A stretch of 64,000 bases of DNA, from positions 32,018 through 96,017 of the forward strand of contig JBAZGO010000010.1 of NCBI GenBank assembly GCA_041652995.1. Direction: 5' to 3'. The translations under genes and the position numbers were made by a program. Shown in pieces: positions 22,642-52,187 of the stretch (position 1 is the first letter of the stretch; the number at the start of each line of letters is the position of its first letter). The notes under the pieces were generated by a model, which searched no databases, was not told the DNA's origin, and worked only from the letters and a program-made list of their open reading frames with translations. The stretch is from Prolixibacteraceae bacterium (GTDB lineage Bacteria > Bacteroidota > Bacteroidia > Bacteroidales > Prolixibacteraceae).

Positions 22642-24519
22642 ATGTTACCGTTTTACGATGTTATAGTAGTTGGAGGTGGTCATGCCGGGTGTGAAGCTGC
22701 CGCGGCGGCGGCAAATTTGGGTTCAAAAACATTGCTCATTACAATGGACATGACCAAATATGCACAAATGTCGTGTAATCCGGCGATGGGTGGAATTGCA
22801 AAAGGTCAGATTGTTCGTGAGATTGATGCTTTGGGTGGATTTTCAGGAATTGTAAGTGACAAGTCAAGTATTCAGTTTCGGATGTTAAATCAGTCAAAGG
22901 GACCCGCCATGTGGAGCCCAAGAGCACAAAATGACCGTGTTCGTTTTACCGAACTTTGGCGACATGTTTTGGAAAAAACAGATAACCTGGATTTGTGGCA
23001 GGATGCAGTTGTTTCTTTGCATTTTAAAGACAATGTGGTGACCGGAGTTCGCACAAAAATAGGAGTCGATTTTTATTCCAAATCTGTTGTCTTAACCAAT
23101 GGTACATTCCTGAATGGATTGATGCACATTGGAAAATCTCAGATGGAAGGTGGACGGATAGGAGAGAGTGCTTCATATCATATTTCTGATCAATTACTGA
23201 ATGTTGGTTTTAAAACCGGTCGTTTAAAGACCGGAACGCCAGTTCGGATTGATGGCAGGTCGATTGATTTTTCGAAATTGCAGGAGCAGAAAGGTGATGA
23301 AAATGTGCAAAAGTTTTCATTTCTTCCTGAAGTAAAATCAACTCTTAAGCAAAAAAGTTGCTGGATTACTTATACCAACGAAACAGTTCATTCGATTTTG
23401 GAGGAGGGTTTTGCTGATTCGCCGATGTATAATGGAACGATTGTTGGCACTGGTCCTCGGTATTGTCCAAGCATCGAATCTAAAATAGTCACCTTTGCCG
23501 AGCGGACTTCGCATCAGTTATTTTTAGAGCCTGAAGGCGAAGATACCATCGAATATTACCTGAATGGATTTTCTTCTTCTTTGCCGTGGGACGTTCAGTT
23601 ACGTGCCTTAAAAGAAGTACCGGGATTGGAAAATGTTCGCATTTTCAGGCCGGGATATGCTATAGAATACGACTATTTTGATCCAACTCAATTGAATCAT
23701 ACACTTGAAACCAAGCTTATCAGCAATCTTTATTTTGCTGGTCAGATTAATGGAACAACTGGTTATGAAGAAGCAGCTGCGCAAGGTATTATGGCAGGAA
23801 TAAATGCGCATCAAAAAGTACACGAAAAAGCACCTTTTGTACTCAGTCGTGATGAAGCTTATATTGGAGTTTTAATAGATGATTTAGTGACCAAAGGAGT
23901 CGACGAGCCATACCGAATGTTTACTTCAAGGGCGGAATACCGTATTTTGTTGCGTCAGGATAATGCTGATTTTCGGTTAACCCAAAAGTCATTCGAACTT
24001 GGATTGGCTGAAAAATTCAGATATGATTTGATGATTGAAAAGAAAAATTCAGTTGAATCTATTGTCGATTTTGTTTCAAATTTTTCAATTAAACCCCAGT
24101 TTATCGATCATATTCTGGAAAGAAAAGGCTCGGCTACTTTGAAACAAGGAGTCAAATTGGTCGACGTTATTTTGCGTCCGCAGATCTCAATTTTCGACTT
24201 GGTTGAAGAAATTACTCCGTTTAAAAATTTTCTGAAGGCGATTCCTCAGGAGAGATTTACTGAAATTTTGGAATCTGCTGAGATTGCTATAAAGTATGCT
24301 GGCTATATTGATCGTGAGAAATTGGTTGCAGATAAGTACCGGAGATTGGAGAATATTGTGATTTCCGGCAGATTTGATTATGGCAAAATTGCAACAATCA
24401 GTACTGAAGCGAGACAAAAACTTACTGAAATTCAGCCTGAAACAATTGGGCAAGCGAGTCGGATTTCCGGGGTAAGTCCGTCGGATATAAATGTGTTATT
24501 GGTTTTAATGGGTAGATAA
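22642..24519 (+). CDS. mnmG: tRNA uridine 5-carboxymethylaminomethyl modification enzyme MnmG (GidA)
   Basis: [62 protein letters not shown]. Confidence 0.98.
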
Positions 24520-24535
24520 TGTTCCACGTGGAACT
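24520..24535. promoter_or_regulatory. parS centromere-like site
   Basis: TGTTCCACGTGGAACT, containing the perfect 14-bp palindrome GTTCCACGTGGAAC (24521-24534), immediately after the mnmG stop; matches the universal parS consensus. Confidence 0.85.
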
Positions 24536-24549
24536 CTTAAAATATATTT

Positions 24550-25068
24550 ATGGAGCTTAAAAATTTTGTAAGGACGATTGAAGATTATCCGATTGAAGGA
24601 ATCAGTTTTAAAGACATTACAACTTTGCTAAAAGACCCGGGAGCATTCAGGAATGTGGTTGATCAGATTTCGGAGTATTGCAATGGGAAGGGGATAACGA
24701 AAATTGTTTCGCTCGAATCACGTGGATTTATTGTTGGTGGGGCAGTGGCTTATTGTGTGAATGCAGGCTTTGTTCCGATCCGGAAAAAAGGAAAATTACC
24801 GGCTTCTGTAGTGACCGAATCGTATGAATTGGAGTACGGGGTTGACCAGATTGAAATGCATGTGGATGCCCTCAATGAAGATGATGTGGTGCTCATTCAC
24901 GATGATTTGCTGGCCACCGGAGGCACCGCTTTGGCTGCGCTAAATCTGGTAAAACAAATGAATGTGAAGAAAATTTATTTATCTTTTATTTGCGATCTGA
25001 CCTTTATTCAGACTGAGAAAAAGAAAGAACTGGCCGAATACGAAACTCAATCGCTCATAAAATATTAG
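24550..25068 (+). CDS. apt: Adenine phosphoribosyltransferase
   Basis: FKDITTLL, LESRGFI, RKKGKLP, YELEYG, DDLLATGGT. Confidence 0.96.
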   Translation: MELKNFVRTIEDYPIEGISFKDITTLLKDPGAFRNVVDQISEYCNGKGITKIVSLESRGFIVGGAVAYCVNAGFVPIRKKGKLPASVVTESYELEYGVDQIEMHVDALNEDDVVLIHDDLLATGGTALAALNLVKQMNVKKIYLSFICDLTFIQTEKKKELAEYETQSLIKY

Positions 25069-44848: not shown

Positions 44849-45151
44849 TTACTCGCAGGTACAGCGTTGTAAACAGTCGACAATCTGGCTCAGAATATCG
44901 TGTTTCAAATAATAATACGTATTCTTTCCTTCACGGCGGGCACATAGCACACCTTTGTCTTTTAAAATACCCAAATGATGTGAAGTGGTAGATTGTTCGA
45001 TCCCCAAAAGTTCGTGAATTTCGGTAACTGTGAGTTTTTTACCACCTTCCAGGTGCTTTAAAATTGCAATTCGCATTGGGTGGGCAATGGCTTTTAACAT
45101 GCTGGCTGCCATTTCTAAACGATCGGCGTCTATTTCCTGAATATTTATCAT
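44849..45151 (-). CDS. ArsR/SmtB family transcriptional regulator
   Basis: LKAIAHPMRIAIL...LTVTEI...IEQSTTSHHL.ILK...RREGK. Confidence 0.92.
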   Translation of the reverse strand: MINIQEIDADRLEMAASMLKAIAHPMRIAILKHLEGGKKLTVTEIHELLGIEQSTTSHHLGILKDKGVLCARREGKNTYYYLKHDILSQIVDCLQRCTCE

Positions 45152-45353
45152 GGTTGAAATTTTAACAGATGCAAATATATGAATATTTAGTTTTCATTAT
45201 ACTGCTGCTTGTTTTAATTGTTAGTTTAGATTGTTTTTAAATAAATGGATATTAGTATTTTAGCTAATAATTGGTTAAAAAAGATCAATTGGTAATGATT
45301 TCCTGAAAAAGTGAATTAATTTTTTAATTTTGAAACACTCAAAAAAAGCCTTG

Positions 45354-46328
45354 ATGACCTCTTTGGATATTATAAAATCGCCTATTCAGGAAGAACTAAA
45401 AAGTTTCGAAAGTTACTTCAAAGAAGCCATTAAAAGCGACATTCCATTTTTGCAGATAATCATTCGTTACATTCTCCGGAAGAAGGGAAAGCAGATGCGC
45501 CCGATGTTTGTTTTCCTTTCGGCAAAAATGTGTGGCGAATTCAACGAAACGACCCATCTGGCAGCATCTTCAATCGAATTGCTGCACACGGCCACTTTGT
45601 TGCACGACGATGTGGTGGACGAATCCTACGAACGCCGTGGAAGTTTCTCGATAAACGCCCTCTGGAAAAATAAAATTGCGGTGTTGGTTGGTGATTTCAT
45701 CCTTGCCCGGGGATTTTTGAATACGCTTGATCGTAAGGAATACCGGTTTTTGCACCTTATTTCGCGGGCTGTAAAAGACATGAGCGAAGGCGAAATTTTA
45801 CAGATGCGCAAAAGCCGGAAACTGGATATCGACAACGAAACGTATTTTGAAATTATCCGGAAAAAGACAGCTTCGCTGATCGCAACCAGCATGGCCATTG
45901 GCGCGGCTTCGGTAACAAAAGACGATGAAGTCGTTGAAAAAATGTTCCGCATTGGACTCGATGTCGGAATTGCTTTCCAGATAAAAGACGATATTTTCGA
46001 TTACCAAAGCAAAGGCTTGCTCGGAAAACCAACCGGGAACGACATCAAGGAGAAAAAAATTACCCTGCCTCTTTTGTATATCCTGAACAACTGCGAGTCG
46101 GGCGAACGCGGCCGGATTTTAAGTTTAATCAAGCGTAAAAATAAAAATCAGGCAAAGGTTAAAGAATTGGTTGACCTGGTAGTAAGTCGCGGCGGACTGG
46201 AATATGCCGCAAAACAAATGAATGAATTCCGCGAAAAAGCCATTGCCGGAATCATGGAATTCCCGGAAAGCGAATCGCGGACTGCTTTGATTGAACTGGT
46301 AAATTATACTACAACACGGCAGAAATAA
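45354..46328 (+). CDS. ispB: Polyprenyl (octaprenyl-type) diphosphate synthase
   Basis: GKQMRP, LLHDDVVD...RRG, VLVGDF, KKTASL, FQIKDDIFD, GKPTGNDIKE.K.TLP. Confidence 0.9.
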   Translation: MTSLDIIKSPIQEELKSFESYFKEAIKSDIPFLQIIIRYILRKKGKQMRPMFVFLSAKMCGEFNETTHLAASSIELLHTATLLHDDVVDESYERRGSFSINALWKNKIAVLVGDFILARGFLNTLDRKEYRFLHLISRAVKDMSEGEILQMRKSRKLDIDNETYFEIIRKKTASLIATSMAIGAASVTKDDEVVEKMFRIGLDVGIAFQIKDDIFDYQSKGLLGKPTGNDIKEKKITLPLLYILNNCESGERGRILSLIKRKNKNQAKVKELVDLVVSRGGLEYAAKQMNEFREKAIAGIMEFPESESRTALIELVNYTTTRQK

Positions 46329-46349
46329 GTTGAATAAGAAAAGTTTATC

Positions 46350-46680
46350 AGTCATTCGAAAAATCGAGAGCCACTTTTCGAATGACTTATTCTTTCCTTT
46401 TTAAGACTACTCCGAAAAGTAGGTTCGTCATTTCCAGTTTTCATCCAATTTTTAATTGGGCACAATGGGAAGATGACAGGGGGAAGAAAGAAAAAACGCG
46501 ATTGAAAATCGCGTCACCCTTTTGGGTGCGGCGGTTTTTAACCGCCGAAAGGAATTTCTTTATAGAATCTGTCATAAGTAGTAGCGAAGGGGATGAAACA
46601 ATCTCCTGTAAATTAACAGATTGCTTCTTCCGGGAACTCGGGATCGTAATGATGCTCTTTGTTATTGATTTTTCGGAGTA
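46350..46680. repeat. Cluster of palindromic hairpins between convergent ispB and LCIB-family genes
   Basis: 13-bp stem 46350-46387; three abutting perfect hairpins 46496-46547; REP/RPE-like hairpin 46570-46654; 11-bp inverted repeat TACTCCGAAAA (46408) / TTTTCGGAGTA (~46670). Confidence 0.7.
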
Positions 46681-46689
46681 CGCTCAATT

Positions 46690-47385
46690 TTAGTCAACTT
46701 TCCTGAAAACCTTCTGCGAAAAATAGTTGGGCAAAGTTTCGTCGGTATTAATCACAATTCCGCCCAGAATATACACTGGAAATTTGTTCAGGAAAGTCGG
46801 ATGATTTCTGATGAGTTCAAGCATTTCCTTCTCGATTTCGTTGTAAACCAAATGAGTGGTTTTCAGGATCGGAACTTCAGCTTTTTGAATTTCGTCAACC
46901 ATCGGTAAAAGCCGTAATGCCAGAAATTCGGGCTGAAACTCGGAATAATCGGCTGGATCGATTTGATGAATCTTTGTGGAAAGGGCATGTTGCTGAACCA
47001 TCATCAAAGCCCCGCAGGTATTGGTGTGCCGGCTTTGGCCAACACGTTTAATTTTACCCACTTCGCCTGTTCTGGAAATCCCAATATGCGATCCAAAAAT
47101 GAACAGAGCCGCTCCGCCATCGGGAATATGGTCGGAAAAGGCTGTGAGGCCAATCTCGCCAACAAACGGATAGCCGGCCAAACCGCCCATGATGAAGGTT
47201 CCCTGAGAAGACGGAAGATTCATTTTGGCATGTTGATGATTGAGTTCGTCGAAACAAAATGAAGTGGCTATGATAATCCGGTTCATTTCTATTCCTTCGC
47301 GTTCAGCAATTTCCATTACTGCTGTGTGCGAAGCTTCCGACATGGTTGAAAATTCGTCGAAATATTGACTTATAATTTTTTGCAC
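46690..47385 (-). CDS. LCIB/LCIC family (theta-type, beta-like) carbonic anhydrase
   Basis: Motifs SFCFDE, FIMGGLAGYPF.G..G..AF..HIP..G, FGSHIGIS..GEVG...R.G, TCGAL, ILGGIVIN match the LCIB pattern (CRDE / F..GGL.G / HIAI...GE.G...R.G / CGAL). Zinc ligands Cys, His, Cys are present. Confidence 0.85.
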   Translation of the reverse strand: MQKIISQYFDEFSTMSEASHTAVMEIAEREGIEMNRIIIATSFCFDELNHQHAKMNLPSSQGTFIMGGLAGYPFVGEIGLTAFSDHIPDGGAALFIFGSHIGISRTGEVGKIKRVGQSRHTNTCGALMMVQQHALSTKIHQIDPADYSEFQPEFLALRLLPMVDEIQKAEVPILKTTHLVYNEIEKEMLELIRNHPTFLNKFPVYILGGIVINTDETLPNYFSQKVFRKVD

Positions 47386-47435
47386 AACTATTTGGTTTTA
47401 TGATAATTATTTAAATTTAGTTTTGATCGGATGTT

Positions 47436-50204
47436 TCAACCGGTCGATCCCAAAGCATTGGCAACCGCATTGATTGATTTCAGCAAAAGAATATTTTGCT
47501 GATCGGTTATTTCAAGGTTGGTCTGTTCTTTTTCGTTTCGCCAGCTTCGGAGCGCATTAACCTGCATCTGGTGCATAAGTTCGAGTGCCGCTGCCCTCAG
47601 TCGGGTGGAATAAAAGTGATTTTTTCGACGCTGCTCAAAAGGTTTTACAAGTAACTCTGCAAGCAGGTTTTTGGTCAGTTCATATTCCGATAAAATGAGG
47701 GGCAGAATATCGTTTTTGGATTGTTCATCATCAACCAGCGATGCGTAAAGCTTAATGATTTCAGGATCGGTTGCGGCAAGTCCTGAATCAACAGTCGTCA
47801 AAATATACCGCACAAGTGGGTGCGAGATTAACAGTTGTTTCAGGAGCGAATATTTTCGTGGTTGCTGTTCTTTAATCAGTTTCAGTGTGCTGCCAACTCC
47901 GTACCAGCTCGTAATGTTCACGCGGCTTTGTGTCCAGCTAAAAACCCACGGAATGGCGCGCAAATCTTCTAGCGTCCGTTGATTGGTCCGGCGCGACGGG
48001 CGCGACCCGATTTTACTCGTTTCGATGATATCAATCGGTGTGGCCTGTTCAAAAAAGCGAATAAAATTCGGATGGCGGGTCAGCGCGTTATACGTGTTAA
48101 AACTTTCGTGTGCCATAAACCCAACCAATTCAAACAATTCTGGATTGTGTTTATGTGTATTTAGCAAGGTATTCCGGAGTGTTCCTGAAGTTAACAACTC
48201 AATGTTGTAAGCCGCATTGACTTTGTTGGCATATTTTCGTTCGATGGTTTCACCCTGTTCGGTTAGGCGCAGCTTTCCGTGAAGCGATTCAGGAGGAAGA
48301 CTTTTTAAGAACCAGTGAGTTGGCCCGGCGCCGCGACTGATGCTTCCTCCTTTCCCATGGAAGAAACGAATATCAACGCCGTATTTTCGCCCAACTTTGG
48401 CTAATTCGTATTGCGCTTCGTACAAATGCCAGAGGCTCGACAAAATTCCGCCATCTTTGTTGCTGTCGCTGTATCCAATCATCACTTCGGCAACCGGATT
48501 TTTGTTGCCTTTTAACTTCATCTGGAATTTAAGTGTATTCTGCGTTACCGGATGAGCCAAAAATTCACTAAGAATTTCAGGCGCACGGTGCAAATCTTCA
48601 ATGGTTTCAAACAAGGGTACAACCGGAATCTGACAGGCTGGTCCGTTTGGAGTTTTTTCATATAAACCGGCTTCCCTGGCCAAAAGATAAACGGTAAACA
48701 GGTCGTCGACTTTGCGTGTCATACTTACGATCAATGATCCCAACGCATTTGGTCCGTGCTTCCTGACATGTGCCGAAAGAACTCCAAGGTAGCCCATTGC
48801 ATTGTTTGTTTCAGAAACATCGCCGGAATAGGTGTATGTGAATGGCCTGTAAATGCTGAGTTCGTTTAATAAAAAATCTTTATTTGGTGAGCCGTCACCG
48901 TTTATGGGATTTCCGGAACGATCGACATCTTCGAGTAAACCGATAAATGCTTTTTGATAGAAGGCGCTGTTTTGCCGCACGTCCAGATGAGCCAGGTGAA
49001 AGCCAAAATTCTGAACAAAGCGCGAAAATTTGTCAACTTCGTTTACAGCCAAAGTTGGTGCGCCCCAATCAGAAAGTGCCTGCATCAGCAAATCAATGTC
49101 GTTTAGCAATTGGTGCGAATTGGTGTAGGTCCAGTCTTCCTGCGTCAACAAGCTAATTCCGGTCAGTGGCTCCTGCCTGATGGGAAGTTTTTCGGCGAGT
49201 AAAAACACATATTGCTTAAACGGTTCGCGCGATGCAGCGGCAAACCTGGTATTTTCTGTAATTCCGGGAATTTGTTGCTGAAGTGTGCTTTTCCTTTCCA
49301 TAAACATAGCATTTTCAATGTTTCCTGAAGTGTAAATGCTCAGGCTGTCGGCAAGCAAAAGCAAATGTTGCCGAACAAGTGAAAGAGCTTCAGTGCGCAG
49401 CCGTACTAATGTGTATCGTGTGATTTCAGGAGTTACCAGCGGATGGCCGTCACGGTCGCCGCCGACCCAGGTGCCCAACGTTATTTTTGGCATGTTCCGG
49501 TAATTGTTTAAAACTTCAGGCTGAAAACCTGCTTCGCTCCATGCCTGGTGCAAAGTGCGGTCGTGAAGTTCAAAAACATCAGGAAAAACATTGGTCAGGT
49601 AATGCAAAACATTATCGAGTTCAGTTTCAACCTTTGGTTTTTCGAGGTAAATATCGTCGATAAACCACAACCTGGTTAGAATTTCTTTAATAACCGAGCG
49701 AATCTGGTCACGTTCGAGTACCGTGTACACCGGATTTTCGAGCTTAACCAGTTGCAAATACAATTCGCGGTAATACTTCAAAACAACTGTTCGCTTGGCT
49801 TCGGTCGGGTGTGCAGTCAATACGGGTTCGACCCCAATTTGCGAAAGCGCTTCCACGATTTCTTCCTGCGAAAATCCTGAATCTTTCAGTTCGGAAAATG
49901 TATGGGCCCAGCTTCCGTTTACGCTGTCGGCGCCTTGCTCCTGTTGTTTGTTGCGCCTGCTTTGAACGGCCCAGTTAACCTCGCAAAGGTTTAATAACTG
50001 AAAACTGATGGAATACAGATGAATGGTCTTTTGCTCGTATTTTTCTGTTGGAAAGGAAACCTTGGGACTCAACCACGGAATATACGTAATCAGTTCTTTT
50101 TCATTGTTTTCTTCCAATACTTCGGCCAGACATTCAAGCAAAAAGTGCAAATCGGAATAAGGCTTCCCGATTTCTTTGATGTTTTCAAGTAGTACAGGGT
50201 GCAT
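47436..50204 (-). CDS. ppc: Phosphoenolpyruvate carboxylase (bacterial type)
   Basis: VLTAHPTE, WVGGDRDGHP, LDVRQNS, PLFETIEDL, MIGYSDSNKDGG, FHGKGGSISRG, TEQGE, LRAIPWVFSWTQSR. Confidence 0.96.
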   Translation of the reverse strand: MHPVLLENIKEIGKPYSDLHFLLECLAEVLEENNEKELITYIPWLSPKVSFPTEKYEQKTIHLYSISFQLLNLCEVNWAVQSRRNKQQEQGADSVNGSWAHTFSELKDSGFSQEEIVEALSQIGVEPVLTAHPTEAKRTVVLKYYRELYLQLVKLENPVYTVLERDQIRSVIKEILTRLWFIDDIYLEKPKVETELDNVLHYLTNVFPDVFELHDRTLHQAWSEAGFQPEVLNNYRNMPKITLGTWVGGDRDGHPLVTPEITRYTLVRLRTEALSLVRQHLLLLADSLSIYTSGNIENAMFMERKSTLQQQIPGITENTRFAAASREPFKQYVFLLAEKLPIRQEPLTGISLLTQEDWTYTNSHQLLNDIDLLMQALSDWGAPTLAVNEVDKFSRFVQNFGFHLAHLDVRQNSAFYQKAFIGLLEDVDRSGNPINGDGSPNKDFLLNELSIYRPFTYTYSGDVSETNNAMGYLGVLSAHVRKHGPNALGSLIVSMTRKVDDLFTVYLLAREAGLYEKTPNGPACQIPVVPLFETIEDLHRAPEILSEFLAHPVTQNTLKFQMKLKGNKNPVAEVMIGYSDSNKDGGILSSLWHLYEAQYELAKVGRKYGVDIRFFHGKGGSISRGAGPTHWFLKSLPPESLHGKLRLTEQGETIERKYANKVNAAYNIELLTSGTLRNTLLNTHKHNPELFELVGFMAHESFNTYNALTRHPNFIRFFEQATPIDIIETSKIGSRPSRRTNQRTLEDLRAIPWVFSWTQSRVNITSWYGVGSTLKLIKEQQPRKYSLLKQLLISHPLVRYILTTVDSGLAATDPEIIKLYASLVDDEQSKNDILPLILSEYELTKNLLAELLVKPFEQRRKNHFYSTRLRAAALELMHQMQVNALRSWRNEKEQTNLEITDQQNILLLKSINAVANALGSTG

Positions 50205-50351
50205 TTTGTTTTGTTTTGCTTTTAAACACCTTTAGCAGAATTATTGTTGTGCGAAACAATCTAAACCGACACTTCAAGAAAACAAAAAAGCCGTCAACCT
50301 TCAGGCTAACAGCTTTTAAAATGGGATAGTTTTTATTGAAAAATTGACTTT

Positions 50352-50852
50352 CTATTTCAGTGAAGCCAAAGCTGCATCGTAATTTGGTTCGTCAACAATT
50401 TCAGGAACTTGCTGTGTGTAAATAACCGTGTGATTTTCGTCGAGTACTACAACCGATCGTGAACAAAGGTTTGCCAATGGGCCGGTGGTAATCATTAACT
50501 GATAATCTTTTGCAAATTGTCCGCTTACAAAATCCGAAAGTGTAATGGCGTTGGCAATACCTTCGGTTCCGCAGAAACGAGCCTGTGCAAAAGGTAAATC
50601 ACGCGAAATACACAGCACTTTTGTGTTTTCAAGATTAGCAGCTTCTTTATTGAAATGACGAACAGAAGCAGCGCAGGTTCCGGTATCCAGACTTGGGAAA
50701 ATATTGAGAACCAGTCGCTGTCCGGCGAAATCTTTCAGCGAAACTTTCGACAAATCGTTTTTTACCAATTCAAAATCGGGAGCGCTTGTTCCTTTTGCAG
50801 GCAGTTCGCCCAAGGTTTGAATTGCGTTTCCCTTCAATGTAATTTGTGCCAT
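50352..50852 (-). CDS. tpx: Thiol peroxidase Tpx
   Basis: NIFPSLDTGTCA.SVR.FN, ISRDLPFAQARFCG, RSVVV. Confidence 0.96.
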   Translation of the reverse strand: MAQITLKGNAIQTLGELPAKGTSAPDFELVKNDLSKVSLKDFAGQRLVLNIFPSLDTGTCAASVRHFNKEAANLENTKVLCISRDLPFAQARFCGTEGIANAITLSDFVSGQFAKDYQLMITTGPLANLCSRSVVVLDENHTVIYTQQVPEIVDEPNYDAALASLK

Positions 50853-50907
50853 GTTAAAATGTTTTTTAATGAAGATTTGATTTTTTCTTCTTAAAACAGC
50901 TTCAGGC

Positions 50908-51762
50908 TTAAAAATGTTTTACCGTGCTGCCAGTAATTCTTTCGAGCAGGTTGTTGGCCAGCCTGCTTGCTCCAATCCTGAAAAGTTCCGGTGTCAGCCA
51001 CTCAGAACCCAGTATTTCCTGGACAATAGTGAGATAAAGGATGGCATCTTCCGGAGTTACAATTCCCCCGGCAGGTTTGAACCCAACTCTTTCACCGGTT
51101 TCCTCAAAATGTTGCTTGATGGCCAGGCACATCACAAAGGCAGCTTCGGGCGAGGCGGCCTGCAGAAGTTTTCCGGTTGAAGTCTTGATGAAATCGGCGC
51201 CAGCGCTGATCGCCAAAATAGAGGCCTGCCAGATTTGATCGACATTCAGTACTCCGGTTTCCAGAATTACTTTCAAATGTGCATCACCAATGGCTTTTTT
51301 TATATCTGAAATTTCTTTTGCGCAGGTTTCGAAATGACCTTCAAGAAATGCCCATAGCGGCAAAACGATGTCAATTTCATTTGCTCCGGCTACAACAGCC
51401 AGGTGTGCTTCTTCAATTTTAATTTTTGTAAATGTCATCGACGATGGAAAACCTCCGGCAACCGCTGCAATTTTAACATCCGGAACTTTCAGCGTATTTT
51501 TCACGGTGTGCGCCATATTCGGGTAAACACAGATGGCGGCCACGTTGGGTATTCCTGAAAAAATCTCCGGAAATTGGTTCACTTTTTCGGTAAAGGCAGT
51601 CACCGAACTGATGGTGTCTGTTGAATTCAGGGTGGTCAGATCGATGCACGAAAGCGCTTTTTTGAGCATTTCTTTCGAGCTGTTTTTGGCAGCTATTTCG
51701 CGGATTCCTTCCAGTTCAGATTGAATATCTTCGATGGATAAAGGGCAGGTTTCGAGGATCAT
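50908..51762 (-). CDS. deoC: Deoxyribose-phosphate aldolase
   Basis: IDLTTL, GANEIDIV, LKVILETG, DFIKTSTG, GFKPAGG, FRIGAS. Confidence 0.95.
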   Translation of the reverse strand: MILETCPLSIEDIQSELEGIREIAAKNSSKEMLKKALSCIDLTTLNSTDTISSVTAFTEKVNQFPEIFSGIPNVAAICVYPNMAHTVKNTLKVPDVKIAAVAGGFPSSMTFTKIKIEEAHLAVVAGANEIDIVLPLWAFLEGHFETCAKEISDIKKAIGDAHLKVILETGVLNVDQIWQASILAISAGADFIKTSTGKLLQAASPEAAFVMCLAIKQHFEETGERVGFKPAGGIVTPEDAILYLTIVQEILGSEWLTPELFRIGASRLANNLLERITGSTVKHF

Positions 51763-51845
51763 GGTATAAGTTTTTAATTGTTATCCGATTTGTTTGTTGC
51801 GGGATGCGCGTTTCGGGAAAACCCGCAACACGCATCGCGTAAGGT

Positions 51846-52187
51846 TTATTTCAATTTTTCATTGTTCAGATGGCGTTCCCCGTCCCGGCTGGTTTTCTTC
51901 TCCATGTTTTTCAGGAAAGCATCGTTCAAATCGACCCCGGTTTGATTGGCCAGGCAGATCAGTACCCAAAGCACGTCGGCCATTTCATCTCCAAGGTCTT
52001 TGCCTTCGTCCGATTTCTTGAATGACTGGTCACCGTAAGTTCTCGCCAGTATTCTCGCCAGTTCGCCGACCTCTTCAGTCAGAATTGCCATGTTGGTTAG
52101 CTCGCTAAAATAGCGAACGCCGATGGTTTTGATCCATTTGTCAACCATTTGCTGGGCTTCAGGAAGTGTGATTTCGGTTGAGTTCAT
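51846..52187 (-). CDS. MazG-like nucleotide pyrophosphohydrolase
   Basis: LTEEVGELAR...DEMADVLWVL..LANQTG; ATG 52187. Confidence 0.9.
   Translation of the reverse strand: MNSTEITLPEAQQMVDKWIKTIGVRYFSELTNMAILTEEVGELARILARTYGDQSFKKSDEGKDLGDEMADVLWVLICLANQTGVDLNDAFLKNMEKKTSRDGERHLNNEKLK

Follow-up and report, generated by a model that had tools for sequence, protein, structure and literature searches.

In C4 photosynthesis and in that of crassulacean acid metabolism (CAM), bicarbonate made by carbonic anhydrase (CA) is fixed onto phosphoenolpyruvate (PEP) by PEP carboxylase (PEPC), the substrate of which is HCO3− and not CO2. Hydration of CO2 is slow without a catalyst, and Escherichia coli without the CA Can requires high CO2. 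In this study, we analyzed a stretch of 64,000 nucleotides from a sediment-type Prolixibacteraceae bacterium (Bacteroidota; assembly GCA_041652995.1, contig JBAZGO010000010.1, positions 32,018 to 96,017; referred to as the window), in which the PEPC gene ppc is directly followed by a gene for a protein of 231 amino acids (aa) belonging to the LCIB/theta-CA family. For this ppc-LCIB pair we propose the same biochemical logic as for the CA and PEPC of C4 and CAM plants. Nevertheless, the term C4-type, as used in the initial annotation, can be applied here by analogy only. In plants the two genes are nuclear and unlinked, and they serve a CO2 pump for Rubisco in a photoautotrophic organism, whereas the genes described here are adjacent and belong to a heterotroph.

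LCIB and LCIC of Chlamydomonas are low-CO2-induced proteins of about 48 kDa that assemble into a hetero-complex surrounding the pyrenoid, and for LCIB a non-catalytic barrier role has been proposed (PMC5876011). Both (PDB entries 5k5w and 5b5x) are of the same family as the window protein and have the same zinc-site residues, but they are more distant from it, with a template modeling (TM) score of 0.69 and 17–18% identity. PtLCIB4 of Phaeodactylum tricornutum (5b5y) is a catalytically active enzyme. It resembles the window protein in the Pfam family (PF18599), in the Cys-His-Cys, Asp and Arg residues and His88, all of which have counterparts, and in the fold. In contrast to PtLCIB4, the window protein is a bacterial single-domain protein of 231 aa without a targeting peptide, known here from its sequence and a structural model, and it belongs to an operon-like arrangement with ppc in a heterotrophic organism and not to a plastid CO2-concentrating mechanism.

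Theta-CAs are listed for "diatoms, green algae" only in a review (PMC7215798, Table 1). A survey of CA genes in microbes, published in 2026, deals with the alpha, beta and gamma classes and describes the theta class as thought to be confined largely to diatoms and protozoa (PMC13098186). PF18599 holds many bacterial sequences (965 clusters at E-values up to 0.001 in a representative library); the bacterial occurrence of the LCIB family is therefore knowledge already contained in databases and not a discovery. Our literature search found no description of a bacterial LCIB-type CA or of a ppc-CA operon. Apparently new are the conserved linkage to ppc, its mirror image with a beta-CA, and the functional argument that follows from both.

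Family identity, active site and fold

The initial annotation had recognized an LCIB/LCIC signature in the 231-aa protein by means of four motifs. All of them are present in the translation (C44-F-D-E, F64-IM-GGLAGYPF, SH100IGISRTGEVGKIKR114VG and NTC124GAL), and a search with profile hidden Markov models confirmed the assignment. The sole Pfam match was LCIB_C_CA (PF18599) with an E-value of 3e-46 and 158 bits compared to a cut-off of 25. It is nearly full length (profile positions 7–220 of 223) and, judged by sequence, far beyond chance. No NCBIfam model was found for the protein, and its homologues are named "hypothetical protein" in every source. Among sequences of the PDB, the LCIB_C_CA-domain proteins 9w05, 6kfs and 9vzj matched best (~1e-25), followed by PtLCIB4 (6e-20) and Chlamydomonas LCIB/LCIC (~1e-6). 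The protein is not a canonical beta-CA, as there was no match to Pro_CA (PF00484) and the motif reads C-F-D-E-L and not CxDxR.

Residues C44, D46, H86, H100, R114 and C124 correspond to C46, D48, H88, H102, R116 and C126 of PtLCIB4, for which the numbering was anchored by the entry of the S47R mutant (5b60). All six are invariant across an alignment of 36 diverse homologues sharing merely 25–37% identity with the window protein. We take C46, H102 and C126 to be the zinc ligands of PtLCIB4 (Cys-His-Cys), their counterparts here being C44, H100 and C124. The catalytic Asp and Arg and the active-site His of PtLCIB4 (D48, R116 and H88) are kept as D46, R114 and H86. A His and an Arg, named as His162/161 and Arg194/193, are important in LCIB homologues (PMC5876011). 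The N-terminus of the window protein showed no obvious signal peptide on inspection by eye.

An AlphaFold2 model built from the alignment of the 36 homologues reached a mean predicted local distance difference test score (pLDDT) of 90.5 and a predicted TM score (pTM) of 0.89. In a Foldseek search against the PDB, PtLCIB4 (5b5y; E-value 1e-20, TM 0.88) and 6kfs (TM 0.90) came first, so that the superposition on solved LCIB-family structures, which had been suggested as a check, was successful. For 5b5y the root-mean-square deviation was 2.9 Å with 26% identity in the structural alignment. Next came Chlamydomonas LCIB/LCIC, then many canonical beta-CAs (TM ~0.45), and the CS2 (carbon disulfide) hydrolase 3ten also appeared as a weak match (TM 0.33).

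The ratio of nonsynonymous to synonymous substitution rates (dN/dS) of LCIB was 0.01–0.06 in pairwise comparisons with ten relatives with dS near saturation, and the dN of LCIB was below that of ppc in 14 of 14 pairs. The LCIB gene is under strong purifying selection, and its product is a well-conserved protein of the LCIB/theta-CA family in which the active site is intact.

One related locus stands out. The LCIB protein of L001 (6001–6690) is 99% identical to that of the window (46690–47385), while the adjacent ppc is just 78% identical, which could reflect extreme constraint or a segment with a partly separate history. The nucleotide identity of the two LCIB genes is about 86%, and the differences are nearly all synonymous (dN/dS 0.009). 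A recent recombination is therefore unlikely, and strong purifying selection accounts for most of the identity at the protein level.

Conservation of the ppc-LCIB pair

For comparison, 51 related loci with LCIB proteins 69–99% identical to that of the window were used, on contigs labelled as Prolixibacteraceae or Bacteroidales metagenome-assembled genomes (MAGs); 49 of these loci contain DNA upstream of LCIB. In all 49, ppc is located directly upstream on the same strand. Adjacency to ppc, which might have been a peculiarity of this one genome, is thus widespread. Also outside of this set the pair was found, in a genome of another family (G067; LCIB 31% and ppc 46% identical), on the contig that carries P0144 (LCIB 36%, ppc 50%, spacer ~20–35 bp), and in three genera of the window's family (g187, g196 and g180) with LCIBs that make up a clade of their own in the tree. 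Among 121 sampled genomes of the family, 17 carry LCIB, and 16 of the 17 genes sit behind ppc.

The flanking genes differ between the ppc-LCIB lineages, which have the gene pair alone in common. The spacer between both genes has a length of 1–106 bp in nearly all relatives and of ~312 bp in one, and its sequence is not conserved. With both genes on the same strand, a short spacer, which in the window is free of terminator-like hairpins, and a pair that is kept in divergent genomes with changing neighbors, the arrangement resembles an operon.

Several loci deviate in their details. Two distant LCIB loci (L061:1077-5699 and L098:1713-4702) have a 3′-phosphoadenosine-5′-phosphosulfate (PAPS) reductase and an NhaA antiporter as neighbors in common; ppc is inserted ahead of LCIB in one of them and absent in the other, and this difference may show the pairing in the course of being gained or lost. 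Upstream of an LCIB gene that is itself intact, ppc is broken by two in-frame TAG stops in L011/L134 (G296:C2) and yields merely a 557-aa open frame in L003, due to either pseudogenization or assembly errors in long-read MAGs. Two genomes of the family, G281 and G315, hold a second, divergent ppc (40% identical to that of the window) without a CA gene downstream (G281:C2:139981-142662 and G315:C181:16426-19107), besides the copy that is linked to LCIB.

In Balneolaceae, where LCIB is nearly universal, three contigs of one species (L062–L064, 1137–5693) carry LCIB behind an isocitrate dehydrogenase gene (icd) and adjoining genes for a regulator of the LysR type, a bicarbonate transporter of the SbtA type and an SbtB-like P-II protein, that is, an inorganic-carbon theme. 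Neither the icd nor the SbtA/SbtB linkage is a rule for this family, as it was seen in one species and the icd link is not kept in 29 other sampled loci.

A parallel unit of ppc and a beta-CA gene

At 9 of 55 ppc loci of the same family, a canonical beta-CA of 208 aa is encoded directly downstream of ppc, and this arrangement was also found in two genomes from the family f2 and one from the family f68. The beta-CA matches PF00484 (E-value 5e-53), and its best NCBIfam match is NF007756 (PRK10437, E. coli Can type) with 194 bits, under the cut-off of 251. The spacers are mostly 15–39 bp long. In these sister Bacteroidales lineages the Can-type enzyme (E. coli Can/YadF) occupies the same slot on the same strand as LCIB does in the window, and its presumed role is the same, namely hydration of CO2 for a bicarbonate-using enzyme, but it differs in family (PF00484), in motif (CxDxR) and in the ppc clade to which it is attached.

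In a tree of 50 ppc sequences, the beta-CA-linked genes (12/12) fall into one clade with a support of 100, and the LCIB-linked genes (19/19) into the other large clade with a support of 97, which also holds 15 ppc genes without a CA gene downstream. The ppc of the window belongs to a lineage that is never linked to beta-CA and often to LCIB. The two-gene unit of ppc and CA hence exists in two versions, with one CA class per ppc lineage. Replacement of beta-CA by LCIB in situ, downstream of a single ppc, was considered and is rejected, because the ppc tree consists of two lineages with their own CA class; it is further undercut by a comparison of G067 and G199, which have the same genus label, no common flanks and ppc proteins that are only ~50% identical.

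Other carbon enzymes of the genome

The genome has a size of 5.73 Mb, is estimated to be 100% complete and contains one LCIB gene. A search of the whole genome gave neither a Pro_CA (PF00484) beta-CA nor an alpha-CA, and Pro_CA was absent from all genomes of the window's own genus (6/6). LCIB is the only CA of the alpha, beta or theta type in the genome. By a motif search using regular expressions only, one PEPC and one open reading frame (ORF) resembling ATP-dependent PEP carboxykinase were found, and no RuBisCO signature.

Proposed function and alternatives

We consider it likely that the 231-aa protein is a cytosolic zinc CA of the LCIB/theta type, which is expressed from a two-gene transcription unit with ppc and makes HCO3− for PEPC. 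CA activity, co-transcription with ppc and the supply of bicarbonate to PEPC as the selected function are what we infer from the data above. Since PEPC takes HCO3− and uncatalyzed hydration is slow, a CA is proposed to sustain the bicarbonate supply. CO2 from metabolism or diffusion would be converted to HCO3− by the LCIB-type CA, thereby keeping the bicarbonate supply from limiting oxaloacetate synthesis by PEPC, and the position of the CA gene behind ppc would tie the dose of CA to PEPC expression. This is the best reading of three observations taken together: two CA families unrelated in sequence that occupy the same position after ppc in two ppc lineages, tight spacers, and a pair persisting in shuffled neighborhoods.

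A number of results weigh against this function. No CA gene is present downstream at 30 of the 55 ppc loci of the family. LCIB homologues are not beside ppc in Balneolaceae, though LCIB is very common there, nor in Armatimonadota and on several other contigs, and two Bacteroidales genomes (G092 and G198) carry LCIB and no ppc. Repeated independent recruitment of LCIB to ppc is not demonstrated: the LCIB tree has four ppc-linked groups with weak deep branches, and while the free tree suggested at least 3–5 changes, an approximately unbiased (AU) test did not reject a topology in which the ppc-linked LCIBs all belong to one clade (p 0.64), the constrained tree even scoring better. The pair is a case of long-term conservation with losses. 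Also, LCIB is not quite the sole CA of the genome, as one gamma-CA-like gene with hexapeptide repeats (YrdA/PaaY/CaiE type) is present at G000:C64 ~24380-25030 on the plus strand (L125:882-1532), the best NCBIfam match of which is "gamma carbonic anhydrase" with 141 bits, under the cut-off of 250. A mutual exclusion of LCIB and beta-CA across genomes is unsupported in the family sample, where Pro_CA occurs in 6 of 17 LCIB-positive and 47 of 104 LCIB-negative genomes. According to a review, recombinant LCIB homologues showed no CA activity in vitro even though their zinc sites resemble those of beta-CAs (PMC5876011), and conserved residues are therefore no guarantee of activity. Finally, the AT-rich spacer of 50 bp could contain an internal promoter.

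LCIB in genomes without ppc, where the protein is probably a general housekeeping CA, means that the link to PEPC is a preferred arrangement and not an exclusive one. If the same applied to the window, LCIB would be a housekeeping CA, and its place behind ppc would reflect a gene order that was inherited without any special tie to PEPC. The unrelated neighbors of LCIB in many lineages and a single ancient origin of the linkage, which is not rejected, would fit such a history, as would G092 and G198. We hold it to be unlikely, because the pair outlasts a change of all flanking genes and a decrease in ppc identity down to 46–50%, the spacers are very short, and a second ppc lineage independently holds another class of CA at this position in 12 of 12 cases. 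The same partition by ppc clade (12/12 and 19/19) would be compatible with a closer relationship, in which PEPC associates physically and specifically with the CA encoded downstream, as a metabolon that channels bicarbonate, and each ppc lineage has co-evolved with a CA class of its own; the LCIB family would then have been a bacterial PEPC partner first and have been recruited later by algae for CO2-concentrating mechanisms. Common descent explains the partition equally well, and we regard this scenario as unlikely.

Partner-specific contacts, which could be reflected by the separate CA class of each ppc lineage, are also conceivable for a catalytically inactive protein or a CO2/bicarbonate sensor that serves PEPC in a structural or regulatory capacity. 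Such a role resembles the non-catalytic one once proposed for Chlamydomonas LCIB/LCIC and would agree with the reported inactivity of recombinant homologues in vitro (PMC5876011). It appears improbable, since the window protein is nearer to PtLCIB4 than to Chlamydomonas LCIB in sequence and fold, all catalytic residues are invariant, and the slot in the sister lineages holds a Can-like beta-CA, from a family whose CA activity is firmly established. That the beta-CA fold of the window protein catalyzes a related reaction instead of CO2 hydration, e.g. hydrolysis of carbonyl sulfide (COS) or CS2, is highly improbable: beta-CAs of clade D acting as COSases are known (PMC13098186) and the weak Foldseek match to 3ten points in this direction, but the gene context is without a pointer to sulfur-compound metabolism, and CO2 hydration is favored by the linkage to a carboxylase that uses bicarbonate as well as by the parallel to the Can-like beta-CA.

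A CA that supplies PEPC, as we propose, would be of interest beyond this locus. The in vivo role of LCIB proteins as CAs is debated, and bacteria with the ppc-LCIB pair provide a simple setting to test LCIB function, with a small single-domain protein, a conserved pairing with a bicarbonate-consuming enzyme, and a natural control in the form of the Can-like beta-CA in the slot of the sister lineages. For genome surveys, it means that genomes scored as being without alpha- or beta-CA may carry the LCIB/theta class. Also, the pair points to the supply of bicarbonate as a possible limitation of PEPC in fermentative Bacteroidota, with relevance to dark CO2 fixation in sediments and to the engineering of succinate or oxaloacetate production.

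Organization of the locus

The features of the locus are listed in Table 1. The initial annotation had described a 231-aa ORF following ppc on the same strand after 50 bp without a visible hairpin; strand, ORF and distance proved to be exact, and a consensus scan of the spacer gave no terminator-like hairpin either.

Table 1. Features of the ppc-LCIB locus and its surroundings (positions in the window)
Feature	Position	Strand	Evidence
ppc, PEP carboxylase, 922 aa	47436..50204	minus	ORF list, Pfam PF00311, ppc tree
Spacer from ppc stop to CA start, 50 bp, AT-rich	47386..47435	minus	Sequence; terminator scan without hairpin
Homologue of LCIB/theta-type carbonic anhydrases (beta-CA fold), 231 aa, start codon GTG	46690..47385	minus	PF18599, residues, AlphaFold2, Foldseek, dN/dS
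Terminator-like hairpin and T-run, ~175 bp past CA stop	46495..46515	minus	Consensus scan
Terminator-like hairpin at end of upstream tpx (thiol peroxidase)	50286..50317	minus	Consensus scan; tpx by PF08534 match
Polyprenyl synthetase gene, convergent, next after CA gene	45330-46328	plus	Pfam

The PF00311 match of ppc has an E-value of 2.5e-199 and covers profile positions 64–919 of 919; with the NCBIfam model NF000584 it reaches 637 bits, under the cut-off of 815. The GTG start of the 231-aa ORF aligns with ATG in many relatives and the second codon is identical (CAA, Gln), which makes the start credible. No promoter was identified with confidence, and an Rfam search of positions 45000–52000 gave no RNA elements. 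The ppc promoter should lie within 50205–50285, with the tpx hairpin as the 5′ boundary of the ppc-CA unit, and the hairpin downstream of the CA gene is likely the 3′ end of the unit.

The gap past the CA gene is occupied by a possibly spurious ORF of 103 aa on the plus strand (46382–46693), which overlaps the CA stop and encloses the terminator-like hairpin.

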